DNA from: Halanaerobiales bacterium
GTDB lineage: Bacteria > Bacillota > Halanaerobiia > Halanaerobiales > M55B127
Direction of reading: 5' to 3'
DNA: 60,900 nt
Assembly (NCBI GenBank): GCA_035312025.1
Contig: DATGCJ010000060.1
Coordinates: 1-60,900 of the forward strand
The translations under genes were made by a program, and so were the position numbers. Positions 5,957-21,778 of the stretch are shown one piece after another (the stretch's first letter is position 1; every line of letters starts with the position of its first letter). The notes below the pieces were generated by a model that ran no database searches, had not been told where the DNA came from, and saw nothing but the letters and a program-made list of their open reading frames with translations.

Positions 5957-5989
5957 TATCTACACCCCTTAAAAAATATTCTTAAATTT

Positions 5990-6018
5990 ACTATAAATGA
6001 AATTTATTAAAATTTCAA
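5990..6018 (-). promoter_or_regulatory. sigma-A-type promoter upstream of the P-loop/Asp23-fabG-acpP unit
   Basis: The minus strand has TTGAAA (6018-6013), a 17-nt spacer and TATAGT (5995-5990). Confidence 0.4.
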
Positions 6019-6162
6019 GTGATTCATTTAAAAAGATAATAACTTATTGTGGTTATTCTTCTCAATTTTTAGTATTTTTCCAGATTAAGTATTTATAATT
6101 AATAACCAAATTTTTCTTATTATTTTACTAATAAAAATTAATTTTTACATTATAGGTTGTTC

Positions 6163-6212
6163 AAAATAAAATAAGCCCCCTAAATAAGTTTAAAAACATT
6201 ACTTAGGGGGCT
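6163..6212 (-). terminator. rho-independent terminator at the distal end of the catabolic island
   Basis: A 10-bp GC-rich stem AGCCCCCTAA/TTAGGGGGCT (6174-6183 and 6203-6212) is followed on the minus strand by a T-rich tract. It lies directly after the C-N hydrolase stop. Confidence 0.7.
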
Positions 6213-6227
6213 ATTTTAAATAAATAT

Positions 6228-7127
6228 TTAGTCATTATCTTTTTTATATGGTATTCTTTCATAAGGTTCGAACTTACTTTTTGCTTCCTTAGTTAACCCG
6301 TCATATACACTTAGATTTCTATCTTCTAGATGGTCAAAGATCATAGGTGATTTAACCCCATAAGAAACATGTTTTATGGGATCACTGTCTAAACGGGCGG
6401 AGACAATTTCTTCTGTTCCCCGAGCTAAGGCTATTTTTTCAGCAATAGGACTAATAATCATGCTGTGACCGAAATAATAATTTTCTTCTGCATCTGCTCC
6501 AACTGAATTAACACCGATCATGTAGATATGATTATCATAAGCACGAGCTTTATTGGTCATTTCCCAAATATCATAACTTCTCAGTAAGGCAGAAGGCCTA
6601 ACAATAACTTCAGCCCCTTTGATAGCTAAGATTCTGCTTAATTCGGGGAAGTCTCCCTCATAACAAATTGTAATTCCAATATTGGCCAGGTCAGTTTCAA
6701 AAACCTCTACTTTGTTACCTGGTGTTGTCCAGCCTCCCCCCTGTAATCTTTCGGAGGGGAAAAGGTGTGTTTTGGAATATTTTCCAATTATATTACCATC
6801 AGGACCAATCAAGACCGCACTATTATAAACAACTCCCCGCTTTTCACCTCGTTCATAGGTAGGTAAAACAACAAATACACTATTTTTTTTGGCTGCTTTT
6901 GCGATTGGACCTGTTAATTTTCCGGGTACATAATCAATTTTATCCCACAGTTCTTCTGGACTACAGCCAGGAGCAAATCCGGTTGTTATCGACTCGGGAA
7001 AAACAATTAGTTCAGCATTATGCTCATCAACTGCCTTATTTAACCAGGTTATTATCTTATTTATATTATATTCAATATTATCAGGTTTAACACTAATCTG
7101 AACCCCTGCAACAACAAAATCTTTCAA
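6228..7127 (-). CDS. carbon-nitrogen hydrolase (nitrilase superfamily) amidase/decarbamoylase
   Basis: The E-K-C triad context is present: FPE near residue 45, YSKTHLF, and ICYEGDFPE. Length is 299 aa. TTG start with SD GGGGGTG 5 nt upstream. Confidence 0.85.
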   Translation of the reverse strand: MKDFVVAGVQISVKPDNIEYNINKIITWLNKAVDEHNAELIVFPESITTGFAPGCSPEELWDKIDYVPGKLTGPIAKAAKKNSVFVVLPTYERGEKRGVVYNSAVLIGPDGNIIGKYSKTHLFPSERLQGGGWTTPGNKVEVFETDLANIGITICYEGDFPELSRILAIKGAEVIVRPSALLRSYDIWEMTNKARAYDNHIYMIGVNSVGADAEENYYFGHSMIISPIAEKIALARGTEEIVSARLDSDPIKHVSYGVKSPMIFDHLEDRNLSVYDGLTKEAKSKFEPYERIPYKKDND

Positions 7128-7138
7128 GCTAACACCCC

Positions 7139-8299
7139 CTAGCCTAAATATTTTTTGATTATCTCTTCAGTGTGTTCTCCTAACTTAGGAGCCCTTTCAC
7201 GTTCAGTCTCATCTTGAGTATCTGATAGTTTAATTGGATTACCAGCAATTGTAAATCTGCCATCGTCAGGGTCTACAACATCAACCAACATATTACGGGC
7301 TTCAACCTGAGGATGATTAAATAGGTCTTCTACATCATTGATAGGTCCAGCAGGAACTCCGTGATTATCAAGTAGTTCAATTACATCATCAGCCTTTTTA
7401 TCTATTACAAAATCATTAATTATTTCTACTAACTCTTCCCTATTTTCAGTCCGTTTATCGTTTGTTTTAAAACGAGGATCGTCAATAAGATCTTCTCTAC
7501 CAATTGCCTCGCAAAATTTAGCCCATATATTATCATTACCAACAGCAATAATAAACCATTCATCCTTTGCTTTAAATGCCTGAAATGGTGTAATTGAAGG
7601 ATGGCGGTTACCTAACGGTCCCGGGGCCTCCCCTGAAGCTGTATAACGGGCAATAGCATTTTCTAAAATCGCAATCTGACTATCTAACATCGCAATATCC
7701 ACTTTTTTACCTTTGCCAGTTTTTTTTCTTTCATGTACAGCTGCCAGTATTCCTACTGTGGCAAAAAGAGCTGCTACAATATCACCGATAGAGGCTCCTA
7801 CCCTTACCGGGGGACGATCTGGTTCTCCCGTTATACTCATGATTCCACCAGCAGCCTGGACTATCATATCATAAGCTGCTTTATCTGAATAAGGACCACT
7901 GTGTCCAAAGCCTGAAATTGCAGCATATATTAATTTTTCATTGTATTCTTTTAAGGTATTATAATCTAAGTTTAACTTTTCCATTGTTGTAGGTCTAAAG
8001 TTTTCAACTAATATATCTACTTTTTTGACTAATCCTAAGAATGTATTCCTGTCTTCTTCATCTTTTAAATTAAGGGTAATACTTTTCTTACCCCAATTTA
8101 GACTAATGAAATAAGCACTTCGGCCTTCAATAAAGGGTCCAAAATGTCTTGAATCATCGCCTGTTTCCGGTCTTTCAACTTTAATTATTTCAGCCCCTAA
8201 ATCCTTTAAGAGCATAGTACAAAAGGGACCTGCAAGTACTCTAGATAAATCTAGGACAACTAAGTCTTCTAAAGGTTTTTTATTATTAATGATAATCAC
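7139..8299 (-). CDS. family III CoA-transferase (CaiB/BaiF/Frc-like)
   Basis: The N-terminus PLEDLVVLDLSRVLAGPFCTMLLKDLGAEIIKVE and the central GASIGD (catalytic Asp region) are typical of CoA_transf_3. The exact start is uncertain because the GTG at 8299 abuts the SD AGGAGG. An in-frame ATC or ATT 6-9 nt downstream is possible. Confidence 0.85.
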   Translation of the reverse strand: MIIINNKKPLEDLVVLDLSRVLAGPFCTMLLKDLGAEIIKVERPETGDDSRHFGPFIEGRSAYFISLNWGKKSITLNLKDEEDRNTFLGLVKKVDILVENFRPTTMEKLNLDYNTLKEYNEKLIYAAISGFGHSGPYSDKAAYDMIVQAAGGIMSITGEPDRPPVRVGASIGDIVAALFATVGILAAVHERKKTGKGKKVDIAMLDSQIAILENAIARYTASGEAPGPLGNRHPSITPFQAFKAKDEWFIIAVGNDNIWAKFCEAIGREDLIDDPRFKTNDKRTENREELVEIINDFVIDKKADDVIELLDNHGVPAGPINDVEDLFNHPQVEARNMLVDVVDPDDGRFTIAGNPIKLSDTQDETERERAPKLGEHTEEIIKKYLG

Positions 8300-8367
8300 C
8301 CTCCTATTTATTTTCTTTTTTAATGAACATATTTTATATAATAATTAATACAGGTCTGGTCTAACGA

Positions 8368-8396
8368 TAGATAATAAAAAGTCTATATATTTTCAA
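8368..8396 (-). promoter_or_regulatory. candidate sigma-A promoter for the CoA-transferase/C-N hydrolase unit
   Basis: The minus strand has TTGAAA (8396-8391), a 17-nt spacer and TATCTA (8373-8368). A 14-bp perfect palindrome lies 8 bp upstream (8404-8417). Confidence 0.35.
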
Positions 8397-8584
8397 TATA
8401 ACCAATTTGATCAAATTAATCAATTTTTGCTTAGTATTATAAATCAATATTACTCTATCTATAGAAAATAAGCAAAGACCTCCTCTTTATTTTTTTGTTA
8501 TCTATCAGAGACCTTTAACTTATTTCCTTTATTTTTTAAAACTAAAGTATCCAATATTATCTTTGATTATTTATTTTAACTATT

Positions 8585-10909
8585 TTACTTCTCTTTCTCA
8601 ATATAATCATAAATTCTTTCCGGAATAACCGGCATTTCTTTGATATGGATCCCAATTGCATCCTGAACAGCATTACCTACTGCTGAAGGAATAGAAAGCA
8701 TGGGATGTTCTGCTACACCACGAGCTCCATAGGGTCCGTCTTCTTGAGCATTTTCTATTATAATTGGTTTTAATTCCGGTATATCAGCAATTGAAGGTAC
8801 TTTATAATCAGTAAAAGTATTTGTCAAGAGTCTACCGTCATCACTAAATTGATATCCTTCCATCACAGCGGAACCATAGCCTTGAATTACTCCACCTTCA
8901 ATTTGGCCAATTACATTCTGCTTATTTATAGTTTTACCTACATCGAAAGCAGAAGCGATCTTAATTACTTCCAGTTCACCTGTTTCTTCATCAACAATTA
9001 CTTCTACACCATGGGCTCCATAAGTCCAGTCAAGGGCAGGTAATCCCTGGCCTGTTTCTGGATCAATGTTAGTTAAGCCTTGAGCAATATAGTTACCTCT
9101 TGCAACTAAAGGCCCACCGATTGCATTACCATTTGGATAAGAATAACCCATTGCTAAATCTTTAAAGCTAATATACTTATCTTTATGATGTCTGATTTTT
9201 ACCTTTTCATCTTCTATAATTAAGTCTTCTACAGAACATCTTAAGGGCTCAGAAGCAACTTCTTTTAACTGTTGAGCCATATCCTGACATGCTTTGATGG
9301 TAGCATTACCGGACATAAATAGACCCTTAGAGGCAACAGTTTGCCAATCATAAGGTTGAGTTTCTGTATTTTGTTCCCAGACTACATTTACTTTATCAAT
9401 TGGTATATCAAGCTGATCTGATACAATCTGTGCCAAAGCAGTATAAGTACCTTGACCGTAATCAGTTAAAGAAACAGTTAAGTTAAGAGTACCATTTTCA
9501 TTAAACTTAAGAAAGGCTGCAGTCCCTGTATCGGTAGGCATTGCAGGTGCCTTGTGTAATAAAGCAAGTCCTTTACCTCTTTTTTTGCCGTCCGGCAGAT
9601 CATCAGAACTTCTATTTTCATAATCTATTTCTTCTGCAACAGCTTCCAGACATTCTAGCACTTTACCATGTGATTCACCAATATGTTCACCAGTAATTGT
9701 GACTGAACCTCTCTTTAAGCCATTTTTCATTCTAATATCATAAGGGCTCATTCCTATTTCTTCAGCTACAAGGTCCATCTGTCTTTCAACTGCCCAGAGA
9801 ATCTCTAAGTGGCCAAAACCTCTATAAGCAGTACCAAAAATCTTATTGGTATAGACTGTTTTTGAATCTAGTTTTACATTATCAACTTCATAAGGACCAG
9901 CACCAGCAGTTGCTGCTGCTCTAGTAACATTAACACCATAATCAGCGTTAGCACCACTATCCCATAAATATTCAGATTCAAAAGCAACAATTTTTCCTTC
10001 TTTTGTTACTCCTGTTTTCAATTTGGAATATAAACCTTGTCTAACTGGAACAGAATTAAACTCTTCCATTCTGGACATTACAATCTTAACAGGTCTTCCC
10101 TGAGAAGCCCTTGATAGACAGGTTACTAAAGGTTCAAAATGGATACCTGCTTTTCCACCGAAACCTCCCCCAACATATGGGATTTGTACTTCGATATCTT
10201 CATGGTTTAAATGAAGTCCATTTGCTAATAAATTTCTAACTGCAAAAGGAGATTGAGCAGATGTCCAAATTTTAACTTTCTTACCAGGCATCCACTTCGC
10301 TATTGAAGTATGGGTTTCCAAGGCAGTATGATCAACCATTGGTAATTCAAATTCATTTTCTATGATATAATCTGCTTCTTCGAAACCTTTCTCAATATCA
10401 CCTTTTCTGATCTTAGTATGGTGTGCAATATTGGTTCCCGGTTTTGGAAAAAAGACAGGCGCACTTTCTAATTCTCCTAAATTTTCATGAACTAATGGCG
10501 CGTCTTCTTTAACAGCTTCTTTGACATCTAATGCTGCCTCTAATTTTTCATATTCAATATCTATAAGTTCAATAGCTTTTTCTGCAATTTCTTCTGTTTC
10601 AGCTGCAACTGCAACAACTGGTTCACCTTGATACCTCACCTTGTCGACAGCTAATATGTCTTTATCTACCAGGTAAAGCCCTACTTTATAGGGAAGGTCT
10701 TTCCCGGTCAGTACTGTCCAGACTCCTGGTAATTTTTCTGCTTCTGAGGAATCTATATTAACTATTTTAGCATGGGCATGAGGGCTTAACTTCATTTTGG
10801 CATGCAGCATACCCTGTAATTCCATGTCATGAACAAAGGTTGCACTACCCGTAACTTTTTCTAATGCTTTAATTCTATTTACACTTTTACCAATCATCTC
10901 TTCACTCAC
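8585..10909 (-). CDS. xanthine dehydrogenase/aldehyde oxidase family molybdopterin-binding large subunit
   Basis: 774 aa, with an N-terminal a/b-hammerhead region (KVTGSATF), the VGGGFGGK motif and a C-terminal ARGVAEHP carrying the catalytic Glu. It is adjacent to the small and medium subunits. Confidence 0.9.
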   Translation of the reverse strand: MSEEMIGKSVNRIKALEKVTGSATFVHDMELQGMLHAKMKLSPHAHAKIVNIDSSEAEKLPGVWTVLTGKDLPYKVGLYLVDKDILAVDKVRYQGEPVVAVAAETEEIAEKAIELIDIEYEKLEAALDVKEAVKEDAPLVHENLGELESAPVFFPKPGTNIAHHTKIRKGDIEKGFEEADYIIENEFELPMVDHTALETHTSIAKWMPGKKVKIWTSAQSPFAVRNLLANGLHLNHEDIEVQIPYVGGGFGGKAGIHFEPLVTCLSRASQGRPVKIVMSRMEEFNSVPVRQGLYSKLKTGVTKEGKIVAFESEYLWDSGANADYGVNVTRAAATAGAGPYEVDNVKLDSKTVYTNKIFGTAYRGFGHLEILWAVERQMDLVAEEIGMSPYDIRMKNGLKRGSVTITGEHIGESHGKVLECLEAVAEEIDYENRSSDDLPDGKKRGKGLALLHKAPAMPTDTGTAAFLKFNENGTLNLTVSLTDYGQGTYTALAQIVSDQLDIPIDKVNVVWEQNTETQPYDWQTVASKGLFMSGNATIKACQDMAQQLKEVASEPLRCSVEDLIIEDEKVKIRHHKDKYISFKDLAMGYSYPNGNAIGGPLVARGNYIAQGLTNIDPETGQGLPALDWTYGAHGVEVIVDEETGELEVIKIASAFDVGKTINKQNVIGQIEGGVIQGYGSAVMEGYQFSDDGRLLTNTFTDYKVPSIADIPELKPIIIENAQEDGPYGARGVAEHPMLSIPSAVGNAVQDAIGIHIKEMPVIPERIYDYIEKEK

Positions 10910-10911
10910 TA

Positions 10912-11382
10912 TTAGTTGCCCCCCTTCTTCTCAGCTGCACGTTTTACCGCATTTCTAATAGAGTAATATCCTGTACAGCGACAAATATTACCTGATAAAG
11001 CAATATCAATATCTTCATCAGAAGGATTAGGATTTCTATCTAATAATGCCTTTGTAGACATAACCATACCTGGTGTACAAAAACCACATTGAATAGCATT
11101 CTCTTCAATAAAAGCTTTTTGTATATCGCTGATCTCTTCACCGATCGACTGTCCTTCAATAGTTTCTATTTCAGAACCATCCGCTTCTACAGATAAAATT
11201 AAACAACTTGTTACAGCCTTACCATCCATGATAACAGTACAGGCGCCACATTCTCCTTCTCCACAACCTTCTTTTGCACCAGTAAAATTTAATTTTTTTC
11301 TTAGGGTATCAAGAAGAATTTCATTTTCCTGTACTTCTAATTCAAAAATTCTTCCATTTACTGTTAGATTAATGGTTTTCAT
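10912..11382 (-). CDS. (2Fe-2S)-binding small subunit of the Mo hydroxylase
   Basis: Has both cluster motifs, CGEGECGACTV and CGFCTPG...CRCTGY. Length is 156 aa. Confidence 0.9.
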   Translation of the reverse strand: MKTINLTVNGRIFELEVQENEILLDTLRKKLNFTGAKEGCGEGECGACTVIMDGKAVTSCLILSVEADGSEIETIEGQSIGEEISDIQKAFIEENAIQCGFCTPGMVMSTKALLDRNPNPSDEDIDIALSGNICRCTGYYSIRNAVKRAAEKKGGN

Positions 11383-12236
11383 TATTTATCACCTGCTTCC
11401 CATAAACTGGAAAGAATTCTTTTTGTATAAACTTCAGATAGCTTTTTTCTATATTTTTTTGTACTTCTTACATCGTCAATCGGATTAATGTTATCTAAAA
11501 TTCTGTTAACAATTTTCCCCTGCTTTTCTTCAAAAGAGCCATCTGCAAATAAAAGATCACTAACATCTACATAAACTGGGGTTGGAGCTACTGCGCCTAA
11601 AGCAAATGCAAGATATTCTTCTGCTTTAGATAGATACCCTGCTACCCCTATTCCACTTAAATCAGGACCTTTAGTTCTTCTTTTTTTGAGATAAGCTCCC
11701 TTGCCATCTTCAGCATGTTTTTGTACTATTAAGCCTTTGACTACTTCTTTATCTTTTAATACATTGCTTTTTACTCCTGTCGCAAACTCATCTAAAGGAA
11801 CCTCTCTACTTCCCTCTTTACTTTCAATTAAAACGGTAGTCTTTAGTACTAATAAGCTGGGAAACATATCTGCACCCGGGGAAGTAGTACATAAGTTGCC
11901 AACAACTGTTGCTCTATTACGAACCTGGTGAGCTGCAACTTCTAAAGCTGCATCTGCTAATATTTTATAATCATTATTAACCAGTTCACTGTCGATTATT
12001 TCATTACAAGTTACAGTTCCACCTATAAATAAACCAGCATCTCTTTCTTCTATTTTACCAAAATCTTTAATACCTTTAACATCAATAATATAATCAGGTT
12101 TTCTTGTCTTATGTTTCATATCAACAAAAAGGTCTGTTCCACCCGCTAACAAGGCGGATTCGCCCTCATTATTATCTAAAATTTCAAATAATTCTTCTAA
12201 TTTTGTTGGTTTAAAATAATCAAATTTATTTAACAT
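11382..12236 (-). CDS. FAD-binding medium subunit of the Mo hydroxylase (CoxM/XdhB-like)
   Basis: 284 aa, with LLAGGTDL and the ATVGGNL FAD-binding motifs. The stop/start is coupled to the 2Fe-2S subunit. Confidence 0.85.
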   Translation of the reverse strand: MLNKFDYFKPTKLEELFEILDNNEGESALLAGGTDLFVDMKHKTRKPDYIIDVKGIKDFGKIEERDAGLFIGGTVTCNEIIDSELVNNDYKILADAALEVAAHQVRNRATVVGNLCTTSPGADMFPSLLVLKTTVLIESKEGSREVPLDEFATGVKSNVLKDKEVVKGLIVQKHAEDGKGAYLKKRRTKGPDLSGIGVAGYLSKAEEYLAFALGAVAPTPVYVDVSDLLFADGSFEEKQGKIVNRILDNINPIDDVRSTKKYRKKLSEVYTKRILSSLWEAGDK

Positions 12237-12267
12237 TAATATTTTTCACCTCCAACGAATTCCAAAA

Positions 12268-13200
12268 CTACTTGGTAATTCTGGTACCAGCATTACCATG
12301 AACGGCTTCTAACACTTTTTCTATAGAAGTTATTATAGCCATTTCTCCGCCGCTTTCTACAAAATCACAAGCAGCCTGTACTTTTGGTTTCATACTTCCT
12401 TCACCAAAATGACCTTTTTCAATATGTTCTTCCATTTCATTAACTTTAATTTCTCCGATTGCTTCTTCGTCTTTTTTACCATAATTAATATATGCATTTG
12501 AAACATCAGTTAAAACTAAGAAAATATCCGAATCTATTTCTTCAGCTAAAAGACAGCCTGCTCTATCTTTATCAATTACTGCCTCTACACCATGTATCTT
12601 ATTATCTTTATTAACAACTGGAATTCCTCCCCCACCTGATGCAATAACAATCTCTCCATTTCTTACAAGATCATTAATTATGGGAGCTTCAATAATTTTC
12701 TCAGGGATGGGTGAAGGTACAACTTTTCTCCAGCCTCTGCCACTGTCTTCAATCCAATCTTCTCCCTTTTCTTTTACCATCTTATCAGCATGTTCTTTGT
12801 CATAAAAAGGTCCAACAGGTTTGGTCGGGTTATCAAAAGCACTATCTTCTTTATTAACTAAAACTTGAGTTACTACAGTTGCTACATTTCTATCTAAACC
12901 TAATTCAGCAAAAACATTATGCAAACTATTTTGAAGCATATAACCGATAAATCCTTGAGTCTGAGAGCCACAAACATCAAGAGGCATAGCTGGAACAGAA
13001 TCTTTTGCCTTATCCTGTTGAATTAAAATATTTCCCACTTGAGGACCATTACCATGTGTTATTACTACTTCATGACCATCATTAACTAGTTGACCGATCT
13101 GTTTACTGGTAGATAAAACATTTTCAAACTGTTCTTTTGCAGTTCCATCCTGACCTGGTTGTAATATTGCATTCCCACCTAATGCGATAGTTAATTTCAT
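12268..13200 (-). CDS. arcC: carbamate kinase
   Basis: The N-terminus reads IALGGNAIL...VITHGNGPQVGN. Length is 310 aa and the sequence is collinear with the ArcC family. Confidence 0.9.
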   Translation of the reverse strand: MKLTIALGGNAILQPGQDGTAKEQFENVLSTSKQIGQLVNDGHEVVITHGNGPQVGNILIQQDKAKDSVPAMPLDVCGSQTQGFIGYMLQNSLHNVFAELGLDRNVATVVTQVLVNKEDSAFDNPTKPVGPFYDKEHADKMVKEKGEDWIEDSGRGWRKVVPSPIPEKIIEAPIINDLVRNGEIVIASGGGGIPVVNKDNKIHGVEAVIDKDRAGCLLAEEIDSDIFLVLTDVSNAYINYGKKDEEAIGEIKVNEMEEHIEKGHFGEGSMKPKVQAACDFVESGGEMAIITSIEKVLEAVHGNAGTRITK

Positions 13201-13227
13201 TTATATTCCTCCATTTATTGTATTTAT

Positions 13228-13267
13228 TTAAAAGTAAAGAAAGGAACCCTGTGGTAAGCAGGATTCC
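13228..13267 (-). terminator. terminator-like hairpin between the cyclase gene and carbamate kinase
   Basis: The minus strand reads GGAATCCTG-CTTACCA-CAGGGTTCC, 9 bp with one G-U pair. That pair would be a C-A mismatch on the plus strand. It is followed by TTTCTTTACTTTT. Confidence 0.4.
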
Positions 13268-13283
13268 ATCTTATTACTTATAT

Positions 13284-14042
13284 TTACTCTTCTTCTACAA
13301 AAGCAACTGCGCGTCCAATACTAGATTCTAAATCTACACCTTTCCATGGGAAGAATCCTATTTTACATCTCTTATTAAGAATTTTATCAATTTCTCCCCC
13401 AATGTTTTCAGCGTGGATAATTCCTTCTGGGAATAACTTAGTGTGCATTAGCTGTCTGCTTTCTGGATGAGAGAATACTTCATCTAATGGTGCACCAAGG
13501 TGTTCTTCGGCTTCTTTTGCCAGATCAGGTCTTAGCTTTTTACAAACTGTATTCATCGGGTGATCAGCAGAACCACAGTCAACACCGATCCATTTCAACT
13601 TTTTCTCCATTGCCCAATGAGCAAATTCCATGTTTGGACCAGGGTGTTTCATAAAGTATCTTTCTTCATCTGCCTCAGGTTGATCCCAACCATATTTATG
13701 GTAACCAGTATTGATTATTAAGACATCGCCTTCTTTTACTTCTACTCTTTCTTCAATCATTTCTGATGTATATATATCATAGTCTTCTACTGCATCGCTT
13801 AGATCTACTATTACTCCCTCACCAAATAGATCTTCTAATGGAATGCTGGCCATATCTCTTCCAGCAGTCCAGAAGTGTCTTTCACCATCTAAATGAGTAC
13901 CAATATGGTTACTAGTTTTAATAATTTGTCCGTTTACTCTTTCAGTTGAAAGACGCTTGAAGTATTTTAGTTCTAAAGGTTCATATGTTGGCCATGGGGG
14001 TGTAGAAACACCTATTTTTTGAGTTAAGTCATATAATTTCAT
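13284..14042 (-). CDS. cyclase-family metal-dependent amidohydrolase (kynurenine formamidase/isatin hydrolase-like)
   Basis: Has the HxGTHxD motif (NHIGTHLDGERH), then TGY...GVD and a HAENI-type C-terminal motif. Length is 252 aa. Confidence 0.8.
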   Translation of the reverse strand: MKLYDLTQKIGVSTPPWPTYEPLELKYFKRLSTERVNGQIIKTSNHIGTHLDGERHFWTAGRDMASIPLEDLFGEGVIVDLSDAVEDYDIYTSEMIEERVEVKEGDVLIINTGYHKYGWDQPEADEERYFMKHPGPNMEFAHWAMEKKLKWIGVDCGSADHPMNTVCKKLRPDLAKEAEEHLGAPLDEVFSHPESRQLMHTKLFPEGIIHAENIGGEIDKILNKRCKIGFFPWKGVDLESSIGRAVAFVEEE

Positions 14043-14057
14043 TAATAATCTCTCCTT

Positions 14058-15482
14058 TTATTTAATATATTTTTGGGCAAAAGCCCTTATTGCCTTTTTG
14101 AAACACTCTTCAGGTGGGTCTACTAAACCTGCTCCGATTTGTCCAATTCCTGGTTCTTTATGAGCAATACCGGTATTAATTGCCGGTAAGATTCCGGTTT
14201 CAATTATCTTACGGAGGTCGATACCGGTCGGAGTTCCTCTAAAGTTAAGAGGTGGTATAGTAAAGTTCTCATTTTCAGTAACTGTTATTTCATACATATC
14301 TCTTGTAAATTTAATAGAATCAGAAACAGTACCTCCTACAAATCCTACTATGGCTGGGGCAGCTGCCATTGCAAAACCACCTACAGCAGCAGTTTCAGAA
14401 ATTGTAGAATCTCCTAAGTCCCGGCAGGCATCTTCTTCAGTATAACCTGGGAAATAAAGTCCATCAACTTTTTGGGCTTCACCGACAAACCAATCATCAC
14501 CTAAGCCGCTTACTCTGATACCAAAGTGTACACCATTTCTAGCCATTGCTGTTAGGACTGTACTATATTCTATTCCATGTGCAGCATCCATAGTCGCTTT
14601 GGAGGCAGGCATTGATAAGTTTAAATAGAAATGTTCATTTCCAGACATAAATTCTATAATTTCTTTTATTGTTTCGTTATCATAATCAGTTTGTAAGAGG
14701 TAGGGTGTAATTTCTCTTATAAACAAGGAGGTGCCTGCTTTATTTCTATTATGAACTTCATCACCCATGTGAAGGGCTTGAGAAGTTATATTTTTTAAGT
14801 TTATACCATCTTCAGTTTTGCGCAAAGCCTCTCCTATGGCTGGACCTAACACTTTTTCCATCCATTTTAATTTTTCGATAACTTCCGGTCCATTGGCACC
14901 AAATCTTAATACTTTTCCTAATCCTTCATTAAGTGTTGTATAGGCTGTGTTACCATAAGTCTTATTTTCAACTACCCAAACAGGCATGGAGGGTGAAACA
15001 ATACCTGTCATAGGGCCTACAGCATTATGGTGGTGAGCAGGATCAAAAGTAACTTCACCAGCATCTAACATCGCCCGGGCAGATTCTTCATCTTCAGCCC
15101 AACCTTCATAAATACAGGCACCAATTGCTGCACCCTGCATTGGTCCAGACATATCTTCCCATTTTTCAGGAGGGGCAGCATGTAAAATCATTTTACCTTC
15201 AAAATTTGGTAAAACATCTTTAGCAGTTTGAACATCAACCACTACAGGTTCACTTTTTTGCATCCGTTCAACAGCTTCTTCATTCGCTTTTTCAATTTTA
15301 TCACTTATTTTTTCTATATCATCTAACAATGCAGCCATTTCTTTATCTCCACCCGCGGGTGGCTTCCAATCAACCTGGACTGCATCATAACCTTCATCTT
15401 TTAAATTCTCAGAAAAAGATTCTAATCCAATATTTATTACTTTCAAATCTTCTTTAAATAAATCTTCTAGTTTCTTACCCAT
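14058..15482 (-). CDS. DUF1116 protein (YlbE-like)
   Basis: 474 aa, immediately downstream of fdrA, as in the E. coli fdrA-ylbE-ylbF arrangement. The assignment rests on size, context and remembered family resemblance, not on a search. Confidence 0.7.
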   Translation of the reverse strand: MGKKLEDLFKEDLKVINIGLESFSENLKDEGYDAVQVDWKPPAGGDKEMAALLDDIEKISDKIEKANEEAVERMQKSEPVVVDVQTAKDVLPNFEGKMILHAAPPEKWEDMSGPMQGAAIGACIYEGWAEDEESARAMLDAGEVTFDPAHHHNAVGPMTGIVSPSMPVWVVENKTYGNTAYTTLNEGLGKVLRFGANGPEVIEKLKWMEKVLGPAIGEALRKTEDGINLKNITSQALHMGDEVHNRNKAGTSLFIREITPYLLQTDYDNETIKEIIEFMSGNEHFYLNLSMPASKATMDAAHGIEYSTVLTAMARNGVHFGIRVSGLGDDWFVGEAQKVDGLYFPGYTEEDACRDLGDSTISETAAVGGFAMAAAPAIVGFVGGTVSDSIKFTRDMYEITVTENENFTIPPLNFRGTPTGIDLRKIIETGILPAINTGIAHKEPGIGQIGAGLVDPPEECFKKAIRAFAQKYIK

Positions 15483-15496
15483 ATTATCTCTCCCCC

Positions 15497-17059
15497 TTAT
15501 TTAAGATCACTTAATATTTTATTCACTACGCGCACAGCCTGAACATTTGTGGGGAGTACCTTAGCTCCAACCTCACGTAATTTTTCTTCTTGTGCCTGAA
15601 GATTTTGAGGATCTTTATCAGTGCCGCATACAGAAGCGATAACTGATAGATAGCCGCCGCGTTCAGTGACTTTTTCTTTAGCTTCTTTAATAACTTTTGC
15701 TGCTTCTCCAGCTGGGTCCAGATGTGAACCATAGCCTAATACAATATCTAAAAGAATAACTGCTGTTTCTTTATCATCTGCTTCTTTTATTAGTCTCTCA
15801 TTTCTTAATGAGGGTTCAATCATAGGATGTGGTTTACCTCTTGTAAATTCATCTTCACCTAAATCAATAACTGTATCTTTTATACTTTTGAGATCTTCCT
15901 TTAATCCCAATTCTTCTTTTAATGGAATATTAGAATAAATATCTCCAGATTTCTCAGATAATAGTATAACTGCCTCACTGCATAAAGTTCCACCAGTATA
16001 TAATCCTCTAAGATATTTTTGTTCTGAAGACATTTTATTAACTTCTTCTTTGGCAATTTCAGCTATTTCTTCTTTTGTTAAACCAGCAGCAGAAACTTTA
16101 TCTTCACCTTTAACAAAGGCAGCTGCTTTTAAAGCTGCGTCCTCTAGGGTGTCTGCCCAAATAGCATCAGTACCTTCTATAACAGAAGGGTCACCACCTA
16201 AAAAGTTAACAATGACCGGTTTAGATAATTTCTTTACTTCATCCATTATTTTTTTACTTACTTCTTCAGCAGGGGGTTTAGATATAAGCACGATTACCTC
16301 AGTCTCATCATCTTTATCTAAAGCTTTCATATCTTTTATCATTTCAACACCTTTTACCTTAAACTTAAGGTCGCGTCCACCTGTACCTATAACCTGAGAT
16401 AATCCAACCCCCTGTCTATCAATTAAACTTGATACAGCTTGAGCGCCAGTACCTGAGGCAGCTACAATACCTACTGGGCCTTTATTTACAACATTAGCAA
16501 AAGCTAATGGTGCTCCATTGATTATAGCTGTACCACAGTCTGGTCCCATAAGTAAGAGATCTTTCTTACTAGCTATTTTCTTAAGTTCAATCTCATCTTC
16601 AACAGGTACATTATCACTAAACAGCATTACGTGCAGACCTTTTTTCAAAGCCTTCCGTGCTTCACGTGCTGCATATTCACCGGGTACTGAAATTATTACT
16701 AAGTTTGCATCCGGTTGAACATCTAATGCACCATCTAAAGAACCAGGCTTGTACTCTTTTTCTTTATCTGAAGAATCTTTTTGTTCTGCTAACATTTCAT
16801 TAGTTTTTTCAATTGCTTTGTTTAATACTTCTTCTTCACCATCTATCACAATTACCAAATCATTTGGCTTTGCAGATTCGGCTTCAGGTACTAAAAGTCC
16901 AGCGGACTCTAAAATACCTTTATTAGCTTCAGTACCCATTACTATTGTTGCTTCCTTAACTCCATTGATAGCCTTAACATCTTTGGAAATTGACATTAAG
17001 GTAACAGAATCAAAGTAGGTACCTTCTTTAATTAAAGCTTTTTTTGCCATCCTTAACAA
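15497..17059 (-). CDS. fdrA: FdrA family protein (succinyl-CoA synthetase alpha-like fold)
   Basis: The N-terminus KEGTYFDSVTLMSISKDV...VMGTEANK closely parallels E. coli FdrA (KKGCFQDSVSLM...MMGTPANK). There is a central CoA-ligase-like region, GPDCGTAIING. Length is 520 aa. Confidence 0.85.
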   Translation of the reverse strand: MLRMAKKALIKEGTYFDSVTLMSISKDVKAINGVKEATIVMGTEANKGILESAGLLVPEAESAKPNDLVIVIDGEEEVLNKAIEKTNEMLAEQKDSSDKEKEYKPGSLDGALDVQPDANLVIISVPGEYAAREARKALKKGLHVMLFSDNVPVEDEIELKKIASKKDLLLMGPDCGTAIINGAPLAFANVVNKGPVGIVAASGTGAQAVSSLIDRQGVGLSQVIGTGGRDLKFKVKGVEMIKDMKALDKDDETEVIVLISKPPAEEVSKKIMDEVKKLSKPVIVNFLGGDPSVIEGTDAIWADTLEDAALKAAAFVKGEDKVSAAGLTKEEIAEIAKEEVNKMSSEQKYLRGLYTGGTLCSEAVILLSEKSGDIYSNIPLKEELGLKEDLKSIKDTVIDLGEDEFTRGKPHPMIEPSLRNERLIKEADDKETAVILLDIVLGYGSHLDPAGEAAKVIKEAKEKVTERGGYLSVIASVCGTDKDPQNLQAQEEKLREVGAKVLPTNVQAVRVVNKILSDLK

Positions 17060-17267
17060 CTCCTTTATGATTTATCATTTTTTATAACTCACTAGTTCAA
17101 TGTAAAAATCATCTCTTATTTAAATTACTAAATCATATGCCTAAATAGTTATACCTAATAAAATATCGAATAAAGATTTTTTGGTACTAATCAATAACTT
17201 CTTGCAATATATTTAGAATTCCTTTGTAATATTTTACAAATATTTAATATTTCTTTTGTATGAAATC

Positions 17268-18398
17268 TTAAGCAAATATTGACATCATCACACCAGCTGC
17301 CACAGCAGATCCGATCACTCCAGCCACATTAGGACCCATGGCATGCATCAGTAAATAGTTGGAAGTATCTGCTTTTTGACCTTCTTTTTGTACAACCCGA
17401 GCTGCCATTGGTACAGCCGATACTCCAGCCGCCCCAATCATGGGATTGATCTTATCGGAAGAAAAATTATTCATAAGTTTACCCAGTAAAACTCCTGTCA
17501 TGGTACCGAAAGCAAATGCTAAAACACCTAAAATTATAATTTGTATAGTGTCTAACTTTAAAAATTTATCGGCAGAGGCACTTGCCCCGACAGCTACTCC
17601 TAATAATATCGTTACAATATTTATCAAAGAGTTTTGAGCAGTCTCACTTAAGCGATCTACAACACCACTTTCTTTAAATAAATTACCAAGCATTAACATA
17701 CCAATTAATGGTGCCGCATCTGGTAATAATAATAGCACCACAATTGTGACTAAAATAGGAAATAATATTTTTTCTGACTTTGAAACCGGTCTCAGCTGCT
17801 GCATCTTTATTTTTCTTTCCTTTTTACTGGTCAATGCTCTAATTATTGGTGGCTGAATAACTGGAACTAATGCCATATAAGAATAGGCTGCAATTGCGAT
17901 TGCCCCTAAATACTCTGGAGCTAACTGTCCTGATAAATAGATAGCAGTCGGTCCATCGGCTCCCCCGATTATGCCAATCGGAGCAGCTTGTTGGCCTGTA
18001 AAGCCCAAAAGAATTGCTCCTAAAAATGTTATGAAAATTCCAAACTGAGCGGCTGCCCCTAATAATAAGCTTTTAGGGTTGGCTATTAAAGGTCCGAAAT
18101 CTGTCATCGCACCGATTCCCATAAAAATCAAAGGGGGGAAAATACCAAGTGCATTTCCGGTATAGAAATATCTAAATAAGCCGGCGGGTTTCCCGTCTGC
18201 AGCATGGATCATTAAATTTGTCATCGGTAAATTCACTAAAAGCATACCAAAAGCTATTGGTACCAATAACAAAGGTTCATACTTTTTTACGATACCAAGA
18301 TATAAAAGGACTAAAGATACTATTATCATAATGATCTGAGGGATATCCAGAGCCATTATACCGGTTTTTTGGAAAAATTCTATAAAAACCTGTACCAA
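17268..18398 (-). CDS. sodium ion-translocating decarboxylase beta subunit (OadB/MmdB/GcdB family)
   Basis: A 376 aa polytopic membrane protein with conserved GIMALD, MTDFGPL and GAADGPT-type motifs. TTG start with SD TAGGAGGT 7 nt upstream. Confidence 0.9.
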
Positions 18399-18425
18399 TT
18401 TTCTTACCTCCTAACATATTGTGAC

Positions 18426-18842
18426 TTATTCTATAACTACTAATACTTCTCCCGCTTCTACTTTTTGGTTCTCATCTACATTTACCTCACTAACCTGGCC
18501 AGAAGTAGGGGCATATACTTCGTTTTCCATCTTCATCGCTTCCAGTACTAAAAGTAAGTCTCCTTTTGTTACTTCTTCACCTTGCTTAACCTTTACCTCT
18601 AAGACTGTCCCTGTCATAGGGGCTTCTACTGTGCCGGCTCCCCTACTGGAACTAGCAGATTTTCTTGGCTTTTTCTTGGCTTTTGAACTGGTCTCTGCGG
18701 TAGATGTTGAAGTTTTAGGTTGTGGTGCATGTTCTCTGTTTTGAGTTTCGGATTGAACTACTGACTGTTGGTCAGTTTCGACTTCTTCTACTTCAACTTC
18801 ATATAATTCATCATTAACTTTTACTTTAAATTTTTTAGTCAT
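18426..18842 (-). CDS. biotin carboxyl carrier subunit of the decarboxylase
   Basis: A C-terminal biotinyl domain carries EAMKMENE, preceded by a Ser/Thr/Lys-rich linker. ATGA overlap with the upstream gene. Confidence 0.85.
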
Positions 18843-19249
18843 AATAACTCTCCTTTATTATTTGCTGATATTCCGCCGCGGGTGACTCTACCCCAGATCG
18901 GCACATCGTCTTTAACTCTTGTAATCTTTTTTATCTTAAATTTTTTCTGCTTACTTGAACTTTCTATACTCATGATGGCCGCCATAATTGCTGCCACTTC
19001 TTTTTTATGGTCTATATCAGGTTCTAAATCTGCCACTTTAGGCTCAACTTTTTTTGCATCTTCTTTAAAGTCTATCTTTTCAGAATAAAAGATCTTCTTT
19101 AAAATATTTACCACTATCATCAAAAGAAAGAGAATCAAAAATACTATTAACATACCTAAAATAGCTACCTGTAGACCCGAAATTAATTTTTGATTTAAAG
19201 TCATTGACTGTACTAAATTGGGGTCTCTTAATAACTCGAGAGGATTCAC
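18839..19249 (-). CDS. OadG/MmdD-like small membrane-anchored decarboxylase subunit
   Basis: A single N-terminal TM helix ([20 protein letters not shown]) is followed by a charged tail. The gene lies between the carboxyltransferase and the biotin carrier. GTG start with SD AAGGAGG 7 nt upstream. Confidence 0.55.
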
Positions 19250-19269
19250 ATTAATGCCTCCTTTTTATC

Positions 19270-20814
19270 CTATAAAGGAATATTACCGTGTTTTTTATTG
19301 GGCTGATTTTCCCTTTTACCTATTACAGATTCTAAGGCCATGATAATCCTTGGTCTTGTATTACGGGGGTCTATTACATCATCTATATAGCCTTCGGCTG
19401 CTGCCCGGTAAGGATTTGCAAAGCTTTCTCTGTACTCTTCGATTTTCTCCTGCCTTTTTTCTTCCGGATTTTCGGCCTTTTTTATCTCTTTTCTAAAAAT
19501 TATATTGGCAGCACCCTGAGGCCCCATAACAGCAATTTCTGCATTTGGCCATGCAAATACATAGTCAGCACCAAGGTGTCTACTACTCATCGCTATATAA
19601 GCTCCACCATAGGCTTTTCTTAAAATAACAGTTATCATGGGTACGGTCGCTTCTGAATAAGCATATAATAATTTTGCGCCGTGTCTAATAACTCCACCGT
19701 ACTCCTGTTCTACTCCCGGTAGATAGCCAGGCACATCTGTGAAGGTAACAATCGGAATATTAAATGAATCACAGAACCTGATAAAACGAGCAGCTTTATC
19801 GGAAGAATCTATATCTAGAGTACCTGCTTTAACTCGGGGTTGATTTGCAATCACTCCCACTGAACGTCCATTTAAACGGGCAAAACCCACTACGATATTT
19901 TTGGCATAATACTTATGAACTTCAAAGAAATCTTGGTTATCAACGACTTTTTTTATTACATCTCTAATATCATAGGCTTTATTAGGATTAATCGGCACAA
20001 TATCTTTTAACTTATCTTCCACACGTTCCGGGGAATCGTTAGTTTCAACTACAGGGGCTCCTTCTAAATTGTTATTAGGAATAAATGAAATTAACCTTTT
20101 TATCTGTTCAAAACTATGCTCTTCATTATCAGCTAAAAAGTGTGCTACTCCACTTACTTCGTTATGAGTGGAACCTCCCCCTAGTTCTTCAGCACTAACT
20201 TCTTCTCCCGTTACTGATTTTACTACCTGTGGGCCTGTAATAAACATTTTAGAGGTGTGGTCAACCATAAAGACAAAGTCTGTAATGGCGGGAGAGTAGA
20301 CTGCTCCACCTGCACATGGTCCTAAAATTACAGATATCTGTGGGATTACACCAGAAATATCAGTATTCCTTTTAAAGATTTCTCCGTAACCTTTCAGGGC
20401 GTTAACACCTTCTTGGATTCTCGCTCCACCCGAATCTAAAAGTGCAATAAATGGTGAACCAGATTTTTGTGCTAAATCCATAATTCTACATATCTTTTTG
20501 GCGTGCATCTCTCCTAAAGAACCGCCCATTGTGGTAAAATCCTGAGCAAATAAATATACAGATCTTCCATTGATCGTTCCTTGGCCGGTTATCACACCAT
20601 CAGCCGGAATCTCTCTTTCGTCCATTCCTAAATCTTGTGAATGATGCTCTACAAACATGCCTATCTCTTGAAAGCTACCTTCATCCAACAATCTGTCGAT
20701 TCTTTCGCGGGCGGTTAACTTACCTTTGCTATGTTGTTTTTCAATCCTTTTTTCTCCACCGCCTTTAGAAACTTCTCCTCTTTTTTTGTGTAGTTCTTTA
20801 ATTTTATCTTTCAA
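19270..20814 (-). CDS. acyl-CoA carboxyltransferase subunit (methylmalonyl-/malonyl-CoA decarboxylase alpha, PccB-like)
   Basis: 514 aa and collinear with PccB/MmdA (GGGEKRIEKQHSKGKLTARERI, GGARIQEG, PCAGGAVYSPA, AYGGAY). TTG start with SD AGGGAGGG. Confidence 0.9.
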   Translation of the reverse strand: MKDKIKELHKKRGEVSKGGGEKRIEKQHSKGKLTARERIDRLLDEGSFQEIGMFVEHHSQDLGMDEREIPADGVITGQGTINGRSVYLFAQDFTTMGGSLGEMHAKKICRIMDLAQKSGSPFIALLDSGGARIQEGVNALKGYGEIFKRNTDISGVIPQISVILGPCAGGAVYSPAITDFVFMVDHTSKMFITGPQVVKSVTGEEVSAEELGGGSTHNEVSGVAHFLADNEEHSFEQIKRLISFIPNNNLEGAPVVETNDSPERVEDKLKDIVPINPNKAYDIRDVIKKVVDNQDFFEVHKYYAKNIVVGFARLNGRSVGVIANQPRVKAGTLDIDSSDKAARFIRFCDSFNIPIVTFTDVPGYLPGVEQEYGGVIRHGAKLLYAYSEATVPMITVILRKAYGGAYIAMSSRHLGADYVFAWPNAEIAVMGPQGAANIIFRKEIKKAENPEEKRQEKIEEYRESFANPYRAAAEGYIDDVIDPRNTRPRIIMALESVIGKRENQPNKKHGNIPL

Positions 20815-20853
20815 CTGGGTCCCTCCCTTGATATATCTATAGTTATATTGTAT

Positions 20854-20882
20854 GTTACCAATATAATATTTTCAATAATTAA
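20854..20882 (-). promoter_or_regulatory. sigma-A-type promoter upstream of the decarboxylase operon
   Basis: The minus strand has TTGAAA (20882-20877), a 17-nt spacer and TACAAT (20859-20854). An inverted repeat TATATTG-N8-CAATATA (20851-20872) overlaps the spacer and -10. Confidence 0.45.
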
Positions 20883-20935
20883 AAACAGTATACCTTTGTT
20901 TATTTTAACAATAATTTCATTTTTTTATTGAAACC

Positions 20936-21778
20936 TTACATAATTAAGCCAAAATATAATCCTGATAGCATATCTAGACCTGAACTATTACCCATTTCTA
21001 TTAACTTTTCAGTATATTTTCTATAATATTTTTCCCCATTTTCTATATTTTTGTATATATCAACTAATCTTTTATTATATCTATGATTAATTGCTCCTTT
21101 TAAATGAAGTGCACTAACGCGATTAGTTTTATCAAATAGCTCATCTGTTTCCATTTCATTAATCACATTCAATTTATCTTCTGCTAATTTTGCTTCTATG
21201 ACTGATAAATATCCCACTATAAAGTCATCTCCTGTTGGTGTAAGGCCAATTCCCAACCCCAACAAATTATTGATAGAAATCTTTTTTTCTAAGATATCTT
21301 TTAACTTATTATAAAATTCTCGCTGTAAAGTTGATAACTTAAATTCTTGTATGTTATTTATTATATTAGTAAACTTTAAGATTGTATGGTCTAAACTGCC
21401 TGAACGGTTGGTATTTTTAATAACCTTCTCAGTCCATTCTATTAAAAGATCCCTATCTACAAATGAACAATCCTTTATTTTGCCACTAAAAATGTTTTTA
21501 TTATTATAATTAAATATATTTTTATTATAAATTATTTGTTCGTTGTTTATTTTTATTTTTGTTTCTTCTTCTAAGCTATTTTTGATATTGTTGAATATAT
21601 AATTTGGTAACTTCACGTGGTAAGGAGCTAGGGTTACCTTACTGTCAGTTATTGCATAGCCTTTATTATTTTTTGTTTTTATATTTATAACATTATTAAA
21701 TTTGCTAATTATATTACCATTTAAGCTATAATTTTCTTTTACTAAATCACCTTCAATAATATAATCAAACATTTTCAT
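20936..21778 (-). CDS. DUF2877-like protein (YlbF-like)
   Basis: 280 aa, with internal GLGIGLTPTGDDF and C-terminal GNSSGLDMLSG motifs. Size and co-occurrence with fdrA/DUF1116/carbamate kinase fit the E. coli ylbF position. This is a family call from memory and needs an HMM check. Confidence 0.5.
   Translation of the reverse strand: MKMFDYIIEGDLVKENYSLNGNIISKFNNVINIKTKNNKGYAITDSKVTLAPYHVKLPNYIFNNIKNSLEEETKIKINNEQIIYNKNIFNYNNKNIFSGKIKDCSFVDRDLLIEWTEKVIKNTNRSGSLDHTILKFTNIINNIQEFKLSTLQREFYNKLKDILEKKISINNLLGLGIGLTPTGDDFIVGYLSVIEAKLAEDKLNVINEMETDELFDKTNRVSALHLKGAINHRYNKRLVDIYKNIENGEKYYRKYTEKLIEMGNSSGLDMLSGLYFGLIM

Follow-up and report, generated by a model that had tools for sequence, protein, structure and literature searches.

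A cluster of 16 co-directional genes on the minus strand (6228-24902), built around the transcarbamylase genes allF, allG and allH, was found in a 60,900-nt stretch of DNA from a Halanaerobiales bacterium (assembly GCA_035312025.1, contig DATGCJ010000060.1, positions 1 to 60,900; the whole stretch is referred to here as the window). The cluster probably, though by no means assuredly, encodes an anaerobic and energy-conserving oxidative pyrimidine pathway that would lead from uracil through barbiturate and ureidomalonate to malonate. Its gene content and the family membership of its products were directly observed, as were the linkage of these genes across phyla and their separation from allantoin-linked enzymes.

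To our knowledge, the anaerobic breakdown of pyrimidines is known only via the reductive dihydropyrimidine route. The oxidative route, in which aerobes convert uracil via barbiturate and ureidomalonate to malonate, has hitherto been an aerobic curiosity with partly known genes. In Rhodococcus and Mycobacterium it comprises a uracil/thymine dehydrogenase, a barbiturase and a ureidomalonase (described in part in PMC3758960 and PMC4051656). In E. coli, the genes fdrA-ylbE-ylbF-ybcF encode AllFGH and the catabolic carbamate kinase AllK. The AllFGH complex was purified in 2024 by Kim & Kim and characterised as an oxamic transcarbamylase, which reversibly converts oxalurate and phosphate to carbamoyl phosphate and oxamate (PMC11326118). 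As a result of this purification, Pfam names DUF1116 and DUF2877 "oxamate carbamoyltransferase subunits AllG/AllH", and the description of the system as poorly characterised, given in an earlier prediction made for this DNA from the sequence alone, is out of date.

Results

AllF, AllG, AllH and carbamate kinase in the window

The original prediction had placed members of the fdrA, DUF1116, DUF2877 and arcC families in the window, and all four open reading frames (ORFs) were confirmed at those positions. Domain calls are from Pfam, and equivalog calls are from NCBIfam with the cutoffs of the models.

15497-17059, minus strand: AllF/FdrA, 520 aa, with CoA_binding and Ligase_CoA domains; NCBIfam "acyl-CoA synthetase FdrA" (NF004760), 525 bits against a cutoff of 433
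14058-15482, minus strand: AllG, the long form of DUF1116, 474 aa; PF06545, 327 bits
20936-21778, minus strand: AllH/DUF2877, 280 aa; PF11392, 77.5 bits against a cutoff of 25
12268-13200, minus strand: carbamate kinase, 310 aa, two genes after allG; TIGR00746 (arcC), 433 bits against a cutoff of 358

AllF shares 37% identity with E. coli FdrA/AllF. AllG is 48% identical to YlbE/AllG and has a solved relative in 3CLQ (E=9e-146), and AllH shares only 18% identity with YlbF (E=2e-5). The span of 12268-17059 considered originally proved too narrow. In the order of transcription, the cluster consists of the permease, PucR, AllH, the carboxyltransferase, an OAD-gamma-like protein, the biotin carrier, OAD-beta, AllF, AllG, a cyclase, carbamate kinase, the FAD, 2Fe-2S and molybdopterin subunits of a hydroxylase, a CoA-transferase and a CN hydrolase. 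Spacing inside the sub-operons is tight, from overlaps up to 31 nt, and gaps of 208 nt and 285 nt set the decarboxylase block and the CoA-transferase/CN-hydrolase block apart from the block reaching from AllF to the hydroxylase. The allH gene is located 3.9 kb upstream of allF, with four decarboxylase genes in between.

A blastp search (E<1e-8, at least 50% coverage) with the E. coli allantoin proteins AllA, AllB, AllC, AllD, AllE, Gcl, Hyi, GlxR, GlxK, AllW and YbbY detected no homologue among the ORFs of the 60.9-kb window, in agreement with the earlier statement that genes generating oxalurate are missing nearby.

A segment of about 50 residues switches gene between these systems. It forms the N-terminus of AllG here (residues 9-56, window 15317-15458) and the C-terminal tail of AllF in E. 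coli (locus L001), where it matches positions 507-554 of NF004760 and residues 427-473 of 3DMY. In Selenihalanaerobacter shriftii (L087), a separate 58-aa ORF at 9755-9931 lies between allF and allG; it was placed by its position and not by alignment. The segment may be an element of the AllF-AllG interface.

Conservation of the cluster across phyla

A genome scan with an AllG alignment yielded at least 599 matching stretches, at least 595 of which encode an AllG relative. From these, 80 loci were examined, spanning Spirochaetota, Bacillota, Chloroflexota, Thermotogota, Elusimicrobia and other phyla. They were annotated by BLAST with a protein panel and by unbiased clustering of neighbouring ORFs, and the counts of related loci given here are based on the 79 for which the AllG call was usable.

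AllF, AllG and the cyclase form a recurring unit: among the 66 loci with at least 1.5 kb of downstream sequence, 45 have the cyclase within two genes after AllG, and its orthologues are about 60% identical across phyla. An AllH-family gene is present in 50 of the 79 loci and a permease orthologue in 31. Each hydroxylase subunit occurs in 33-35 loci, and 31 of the 34 loci with the molybdenum subunit also carry the cyclase. A PucR gene stands beside AllH-AllF-AllG in 18 related loci. Allantoin genes were detected by panel BLAST in none of the 79 loci, the only matches being two weak AllB-like amidohydrolases with 25-31% identity. The cultured S. shriftii carries, in a single run, the hydroxylase, permease, PucR, AllH, AllF, AllG, CoA-transferase, cyclase, carbamate kinase (CK) and CN hydrolase.

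In a neighbour-joining tree of AllG (91 sequences, 455 columns, 100 bootstraps), the allantoin-linked gammaproteobacterial copies from E. coli, Salmonella, Gilliamella and Photobacterium form a clade of 100% bootstrap support on a branch of 0.32, apart from the AllG of the window and all 79 relatives. This is the separation from allantoin-linked copies that the phylogeny proposed with the original prediction was meant to look for. The copies from Photobacterium and Gilliamella are 72-73% identical to E. coli AllG and are located beside M20 AllC-, cupin AllE- and Ldh_2 AllD-type genes as well as carbamate kinase; the Photobacterium locus adds an AllB-type amidohydrolase. The window AllG groups at 100% with other Halanaerobiales, including S. 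shriftii. Together, the separation of the clades and the lack of allantoin genes in the 79 loci support the earlier proposal of an acyl-urea substrate other than oxalurate.

Permease, regulator, molybdenum hydroxylase and cyclase

The genes that would supply an acyl-urea to AllFGH are the following.

23655-24902, minus strand: NCS2 permease of the uracil type, 415 aa; PF00860
21765-23444, minus strand: PucR-family regulator, 559 aa; PF07905, GGDEF_2 and HTH_30; its end overlaps the start of allH by 14 nt
11382-12236, minus strand: FAD subunit of a molybdenum hydroxylase, 284 aa; PF00941 and PF03450
10912-11382, minus strand: 2x[2Fe-2S] subunit of the hydroxylase, 156 aa; PF01799 and PF00111
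8585-10909, minus strand: molybdopterin subunit of the hydroxylase, 774 aa, proposed uracil/thymine dehydrogenase; PF01315, PF02738 and PF20256
13284-14042, minus strand: cyclase-family metal-dependent amidohydrolase, 252 aa, proposed barbiturate ring opener; PF04199, 120 bits

The permease is 42% identical to E. coli UraA and 30% identical to XanQ. Its NAT signature TTYGEN is that of UraA, whereas XanQ has TTFAQN. Glu241 is kept and His245 of UraA is replaced by Asp. The Glu-Asn pair of the signature is present in 25 of 34 linked permeases.

The molybdopterin subunit scores under every NCBIfam equivalog cutoff (XdhA NF043082, 510 against 780; pucD, 448 against 784). An alignment of its residues 4-162 with residues 789-948 of bovine xanthine dehydrogenase (XDH) places Ala (GGGFGGKA) opposite Glu802, which we take to be the xanthine-binding glutamate, and the same Ala is found in all 37 cluster-linked hydroxylase orthologues. 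The arginine of the RGFG motif and the C-terminal catalytic Glu motif GVAE are retained. The missing glutamate and the sub-cutoff scores rule out a true xanthine dehydrogenase and point to a distinct subfamily of N-heterocycle hydroxylases; we know of no sequence-defined uracil dehydrogenase with which it could be compared.

The cyclase carries the metal motif HxGTHxDxxxH, as do all 52 cluster-linked orthologues. It is remote from kynurenine formamidase (4COB, E=1.6e-5; arylformamidase model, 38 bits against a cutoff of 223). The PF04199 family includes isatin hydrolase, a precedent for the opening of cyclic amides.

Genes for the predicted processing of malonate

The cluster further contains genes of malonyl-CoA-type chemistry.

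19270-20814, minus strand: carboxyltransferase (alpha) subunit of a Na+-translocating (methyl)malonyl-CoA decarboxylase, 514 aa; PF01039, 696 bits
18839-19249, minus strand: gamma/delta-type small membrane subunit, 136 aa; PF04277 (OAD_gamma), 53 bits
18426-18842, minus strand: biotin carrier subunit, 138 aa, with the biotinylation motif AMKM in its translation; PF00364 (Biotin_lipoyl), 72 bits
17268-18398, minus strand: Na+-pumping carboxybiotin decarboxylase beta subunit, 376 aa; PF03977 (OAD_beta), 544 bits
7139-8299, minus strand: class III CoA-transferase, 386 aa, proposed malonate CoA-transferase; PF02515, 447 bits, under all NCBIfam equivalog cutoffs
6228-7127, minus strand: CN-hydrolase family amidase, 299 aa, proposed malonamate amidase; PF00795, 172 bits, above no NCBIfam equivalog cutoff

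The Na+-decarboxylase is thus complete, with the alpha, gamma/delta, biotin carrier and OAD-beta subunits encoded by four consecutive genes. Orthologues of the CoA-transferase (49-56% identity) are located inside the same cluster in nine loci of the genome scan, and those of the CN hydrolase (56-62% identity) in L020, L042, L046 and L059; the last of these, from Alkaliphilus, holds orthologues of both within its cluster (55-62% identity). Pfam scans detected no urease or allophanate hydrolase gene in the cluster. A hydrolytic ureidomalonase that releases urea is predicted to be replaced by AllFGH and carbamate kinase; in principle, the CN hydrolase might itself have that activity.

Genes of malonate metabolism also accompany the core in other lineages. 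In a Bacillota locus (L009), hydroxylase, permease, PucR, AllH, AllF, AllG and cyclase are followed on the same strand by OAD-beta and a complete malonate decarboxylase (Mdc), with scores above the respective cutoffs for MdcA (887/789), the acyl carrier protein (94/84), MdcD (339/228) and MdcE (271/237); the genes of L019 are arranged in the same way. In five loci (L005, L011, L027, L036 and L068), the cyclase is followed by a CoA-transferase and an amidase-signature enzyme. The amidase of L068, the only copy tested, has its closest solved relatives in the eight malonamidase E2 sequences (E=5e-47), which outrank every other amidase. In Halanaerobiales the cluster encloses MmdA with its partner subunits, and in a Chloroflexia genome (L042) MmdA adjoins AllF. 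The malonate decarboxylase in two loci, the malonamidase-like amidase and MmdA within the cluster point to a C3 malonate skeleton.

The cyclase (PF04199 at 13284-14042) and the decarboxylase subunits (17268-20814) bear out the partners named in the original prediction, and the three malonate-type linkages point to the ureidomalonate or methyl-ureidomalonate that it had guessed as substrate. The hydroxylase, permease, CoA-transferase and amidase, which it had not linked to the system, suggest where the acyl-urea originates and what becomes of its carbon.

Proposed pathway

We infer the substrate of each enzyme from comparative genomics. Uracil, and perhaps thymine, would be imported by the UraA-like permease, and the three-subunit molybdenum hydroxylase would hydroxylate C6 of uracil to give barbiturate. 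The cyclase-family metallohydrolase is predicted to open the barbiturate ring to ureidomalonate, an N-acylurea. With phosphate, AllF-AllG-AllH would cleave ureidomalonate to carbamoyl phosphate and malonamate, as E. coli AllFGH does with oxalurate, and carbamate kinase would use carbamoyl phosphate and ADP to form ATP, CO2 and NH3. Malonamate may then be converted to malonate by the CN-hydrolase amidase and to malonyl-CoA by the class III CoA-transferase. Finally, the biotin-dependent Na+-pumping decarboxylase would yield acetyl-CoA and CO2, with the energy kept as a sodium gradient. The predicted net anaerobic fermentation is that of uracil to acetyl-CoA, 2 CO2 and 2 NH3. Thymine might take the same route to methylmalonyl-CoA and propionyl-CoA, and PucR probably governs the expression of the cluster.

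Other contexts of AllFGH

In a second context, AllH-AllF-AllG-CK follows a ring-opening amidohydrolase of the AtzD/TrzD type, to which barbiturase and cyanuric acid hydrolase belong, namely in L030 (Tissierella pigra; 2497-12325), L038 (2341-12362) and L088 (Carnobacterium; 6243-16926), with 555 bits for NF052395 against a cutoff of 360. These loci contain neither cyclase nor hydroxylase. AtzD here takes the place that the cyclase has in the window, and AllFGH thus recurs right after openers of ureide-type rings. By analogy, the AtzD-linked context fits an AllFGH that cleaves an acyl-urea freed by ring opening, and it suggests that biuret, carboxybiuret or a similar acyl-urea formed in s-triazine/cyanurate breakdown undergoes phosphorolysis. 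Neighbouring genes in this context encode a cytosine-deaminase-like amidohydrolase and, in Carnobacterium, two members of the isochorismatase family, to which BiuH and TrtA belong.

In two further loci, L053 (12294-17203) and L055 (Clostridium sp. OF09-36, Lachnospiraceae), AllH-AllF-AllG-cyclase is followed by genes for 8-oxoguanine-deaminase-like and cytosine-deaminase-like amidohydrolases. DUF6198, a short-chain fatty acid transporter, carbamate kinase and a permease are also encoded there, with no molybdenum hydroxylase in range. These loci may represent an aminopyrimidine route to the same ring-opened intermediate.

The closest relatives of the window differ in the steps after AllFGH. L002-L004 (81-94% AllG identity) lack the CoA-transferase and the CN hydrolase and carry, between a pump subunit and AllF, a GNAT-like gene family referred to as f13, so that the post-AllFGH steps are not fixed. 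The f13 proteins (for example L002 7618-8343) have about 230 aa and match GNAT only below threshold (20 bits). No solved relative of f13 was found even with a 20-sequence profile, and the window contains no member of the family. In about 20 loci, f13 is accompanied by thiolase-like (PF22691/PF00108) and DUF35 zinc-ribbon (PF12172) proteins (for example L074 1334-3207 and L013 6797-7174). Through this module, malonamate may take a different, CoA-dependent route.

Discussion

Strength of the proposed pathway and alternative explanations

Several observations weigh against the uracil pathway as drawn. The best NCBIfam model for the permease, uracil permease NF007995, reaches 396 of the 477 bits required (xanthine permease pbuX, 222 bits), and the carboxyltransferase, with 901 bits on TIGR01117 (mmdA), stays slightly under the cutoff of 999. 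We know of no barbiturase in the cyclase family, the known barbiturase belonging to the AtzD family; Pfam scans detected no AtzD/TrzD protein (PF09663) in the window or cluster, and a cyclase-family hydrolase stands in that place. Carbamate kinase is adjacent in only 15 of the 79 loci. Neither the CoA-transferase nor the CN hydrolase occurs in the clusters of the nearest relatives, and the thiolase-like and DUF35 proteins of about 20 loci fall outside the scheme. The search for allantoin genes in this genome covers the window alone, and copies may be located elsewhere. Finally, the window AllG is 56% identical to cyclase-linked and 57% identical to AtzD-linked copies, with only 19% bootstrap support for the AtzD group. 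These two kinds of AllG are not cleanly separated, so that the AllG sequence alone does not predict the substrate, and substrate prediction by this means was dropped.

Among the alternatives, the same logic might be applied to another heterocycle, such as thymine only, a 5-substituted uracil, a deaminated aminopyrimidine or imported barbiturate, or ureidomalonate might be CoA-activated or decarboxylated (for example to acetylurea) before AllFGH acts. MmdA-type enzymes are named for methylmalonyl-CoA, the product expected from thymine; in the cyclase-linked L053 and L055, two deaminase-like amidohydrolases replace the hydroxylase; the CN hydrolase equally resembles aliphatic amidases and formamidases; and the module of f13, thiolase-like and DUF35 proteins hints at CoA-ester chemistry for which the simple scheme has no use. 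The sub-cutoff permease score and the Asp in place of UraA His245 tend in the same direction. We nevertheless regard this alternative as unlikely, if worth serious attention: the neighbouring malonate decarboxylase and malonamidase-like enzymes indicate free malonate and malonamate, and uracil is the simplest fit to the permease signature and to hydroxylation of a C-H bond beside a ring nitrogen. An ordinary oxamic transcarbamylase, supplied with oxalurate that a non-canonical route forms from purines or a different ureide, or that allantoin genes outside the window provide, and feeding oxamate via oxalate into oxalyl-CoA, is a distinctly improbable reading of the cluster. No allantoin-pathway homologue was found in the window or in the 79 loci, the allantoin-linked AllG clade is separate, and no oxalyl-CoA decarboxylase or formyl-CoA transferase was detected in the window or in the neighbours scanned with Pfam and NCBIfam. 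Linked instead are malonate decarboxylase, malonamidase-like amidase and MmdA. The hydroxylase lacks the xanthine-binding glutamate, and the permease is uracil-like rather than xanthine- or urate-like. What speaks for oxalurate is that the sole characterised member of the family, the E. coli enzyme, acts on it (PMC11326118), that the regulator belongs to the purine-catabolism PucR family, and that allFGHK genes outside allantoin clusters, beside biuret and triuret hydrolase genes in nitrifiers, were taken as oxalurate degradation in 2025 (PMC12625717). The best solved relative of the CoA-transferase is moreover E. coli YfdE, an acetyl-CoA:oxalate CoA-transferase (E=9e-101), through which the oxalurate reading survives, though weakly.

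The decarboxylase genes, and perhaps those of the CoA-transferase and amidase, might also be an unrelated energy module placed by chance between allH and allF and uninformative about the substrate of AllFGH. The occurrence of the four decarboxylase genes in the cluster only in Halanaerobiales, the lack of CoA-transferase and CN hydrolase in the closest relative L002 and the two wide gaps around the blocks would be in line with such an accident. It is, though, quite improbable, given that three solutions for decarboxylating malonate or malonyl-CoA are tied to the core in unrelated lineages (Mmd in Halanaerobiales, MmdA in Chloroflexia L042, Mdc in L009 and L019) and that the CoA-transferase and CN hydrolase lie within the core cluster in S. 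shriftii and Alkaliphilus. Moreover, the decarboxylase genes are preceded by allH, whose product the E. coli complex requires, and are therefore embedded in the cluster rather than placed beside it. We give hardly any credence to an AllF-AllG-AllH that would serve as an ADP-forming acyl-CoA synthetase, for example in activating malonate or malonamate, and not as a carbamoyltransferase. In purified form, the E. coli complex acts as a transcarbamylase (PMC11326118), and carbamate kinase, needless for an acyl-CoA synthetase, recurs beside AllG in several contexts, even if the domains of AllF resemble the succinyl-CoA synthetase alpha subunit, its NCBIfam name is that of a synthetase and the clusters of the closest relatives lack a CoA-transferase.

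Comparison with known systems

Like E. coli AllFGH-AllK, the cluster unites all three subunit families with a co-located carbamate kinase, and it presumably shares the phosphorolysis of an N-acylurea to carbamoyl phosphate and an amide, followed by ATP formation. Unlike the E. coli system, its AllG falls outside the allantoin-linked clade, it has no allB, allC, allD or allE neighbours, allH is parted from allF-allG by the four decarboxylase genes, and the predicted substrate is ureidomalonate in place of oxalurate. With the aerobic oxidative pathway it would have the intermediates uracil, barbiturate, ureidomalonate and malonate in common. The ring opener, however, is of the PF04199 cyclase family and not an AtzD/TrzD "Toblerone" barbiturase. 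In aerobes, ureidomalonate is hydrolysed to urea and malonate, whereas cleavage with phosphate to carbamoyl phosphate and malonamate, conserving ATP, is predicted here. Malonate would further be coupled to a Na+ pump, and the host is a strict anaerobe of the salt-loving Halanaerobiales.

Sporomusa malonica ferments malonate via a CoA-transferase and a malonyl-CoA decarboxylase. The decarboxylase of the cluster resembles the Mmd systems of Veillonella and Propionigenium in its four subunits and in having a class III CoA-transferase at hand for the CoA ester; it differs from them in lying between allH and allF, inside a catabolic cluster of the nucleobase type, and related clusters (L009) use an ACP-dependent malonate decarboxylase. 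The cyclase shares the PF04199 fold family and the metal motif with kynurenine formamidase and isatin hydrolase. From kynurenine formamidase it is very distant, and it forms a separate, well-conserved subfamily located directly after AllG. The combination of an XDH-family enzyme, a PucR-type regulator, an NCS2 permease and carbamate kinase is also found in the reductive uric-acid cluster XdhD/YgfK/SsnA/YgeW/YgeX/YqeA (PMC12507026) and in B. subtilis puc, and the conservation of ATP via carbamoyl phosphate is common to anaerobic purine clusters. In contrast to the uric-acid cluster, the transcarbamylase is of the AllFGH and not the YgeW/OTC type, and the hydroxylase lacks the xanthine-binding glutamate. 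A reductive uric-acid cluster was ruled out, as YgfK, SsnA, YgeW, YgeX, YgeY and hydantoinase are not among the Pfam-scan matches in the cluster.

In the full-text-searchable literature, outside of which subscription-only papers remain, no description of this cluster or of a ureidomalonate transcarbamylase was found. The enzyme families are all known; what appears to be new is their combination and the implied anaerobic, ATP- and Na+-conserving oxidative pyrimidine pathway with AllFGH as a ureidomalonate phosphorylase.

Genomic surroundings and sequence signals

With a length of about 19 kb, the catabolic cluster interrupts a conserved fatty-acid-synthesis/rnc locus, between fabF on one side and an Asp23-like gene and fabG on the other (window 5147-26982). 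Both flanks consist of housekeeping genes, with plsX-fabK-fabH-fabD-fabF, pta-ackA, recG, fakA, prkC, rlmN and priA on one and the Asp23-like gene, fabG and rnc on the other. The downstream junction (Asp23-like gene, fabG, acpP, rnc) is shared by a relative with 94% identity (L002, GCA_964526845.1). As this genome lacks the CoA-transferase and CN hydrolase and possesses f13, gene gain or loss inside the island is recent. The GC content of the window is about 34%, with 29-31% in the pucR-allH stretch against 35-37% in the rest. This composition and the top-scoring protein matches assign the window to the Halanaerobiales. At the edge of the cluster, between fabF and the permease gene, a nitroreductase-family gene (25191-25673, plus strand, 160 aa) is the sole plus-strand gene in that part of the window.

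Two terminator-like hairpins were observed on the minus strand, one with an 11-bp stem 3' of the permease gene (23589-23565) and one with a 9-bp stem (13243-13267) in the 83-nt gap between cyclase and carbamate kinase; the latter could be a sub-operon boundary or an attenuator. Consensus scans did not exceed shuffled sequence for promoters (89 against 78) or terminators (11 against 11). No riboswitch or other RNA that would name a ligand was found with Rfam, either in the whole window at gathering thresholds or in the cluster region at E<=1.

Implications

Beyond this cluster, AllFGH may constitute a general acyl-urea phosphorylase family in which the E. coli oxalurate enzyme is a derived branch. 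Most members, the one studied here among them, would serve undescribed anaerobic pathways that open rings of the pyrimidine or triazine type and recover the ureido group in the form of carbamoyl phosphate, and so of ATP. The cluster would then be the first genetic description of an anaerobic oxidative uracil/thymine fermentation, of a molybdenum uracil dehydrogenase and of a cyclase-fold barbiturase. We advance this wider view tentatively, as a possibility that falls a little short of being probable. With S. shriftii, a cultured carrier is at hand in which the hypothesis is directly testable.

If the proposed pathway is correct, the automatic labels "oxamate carbamoyltransferase" and "xanthine dehydrogenase" would be corrected, and the AllFGH transcarbamylase would gain a second natural substrate, useful for studies of its mechanism. 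Functions would be provided for a large orphan group of molybdenum hydroxylases, for a cyclase subfamily and for most members of DUF1116 and DUF2877. Anaerobic bacteria would possess a third, energy-yielding route of pyrimidine breakdown, and a widespread one, with most of the 80 examined loci sharing the context.

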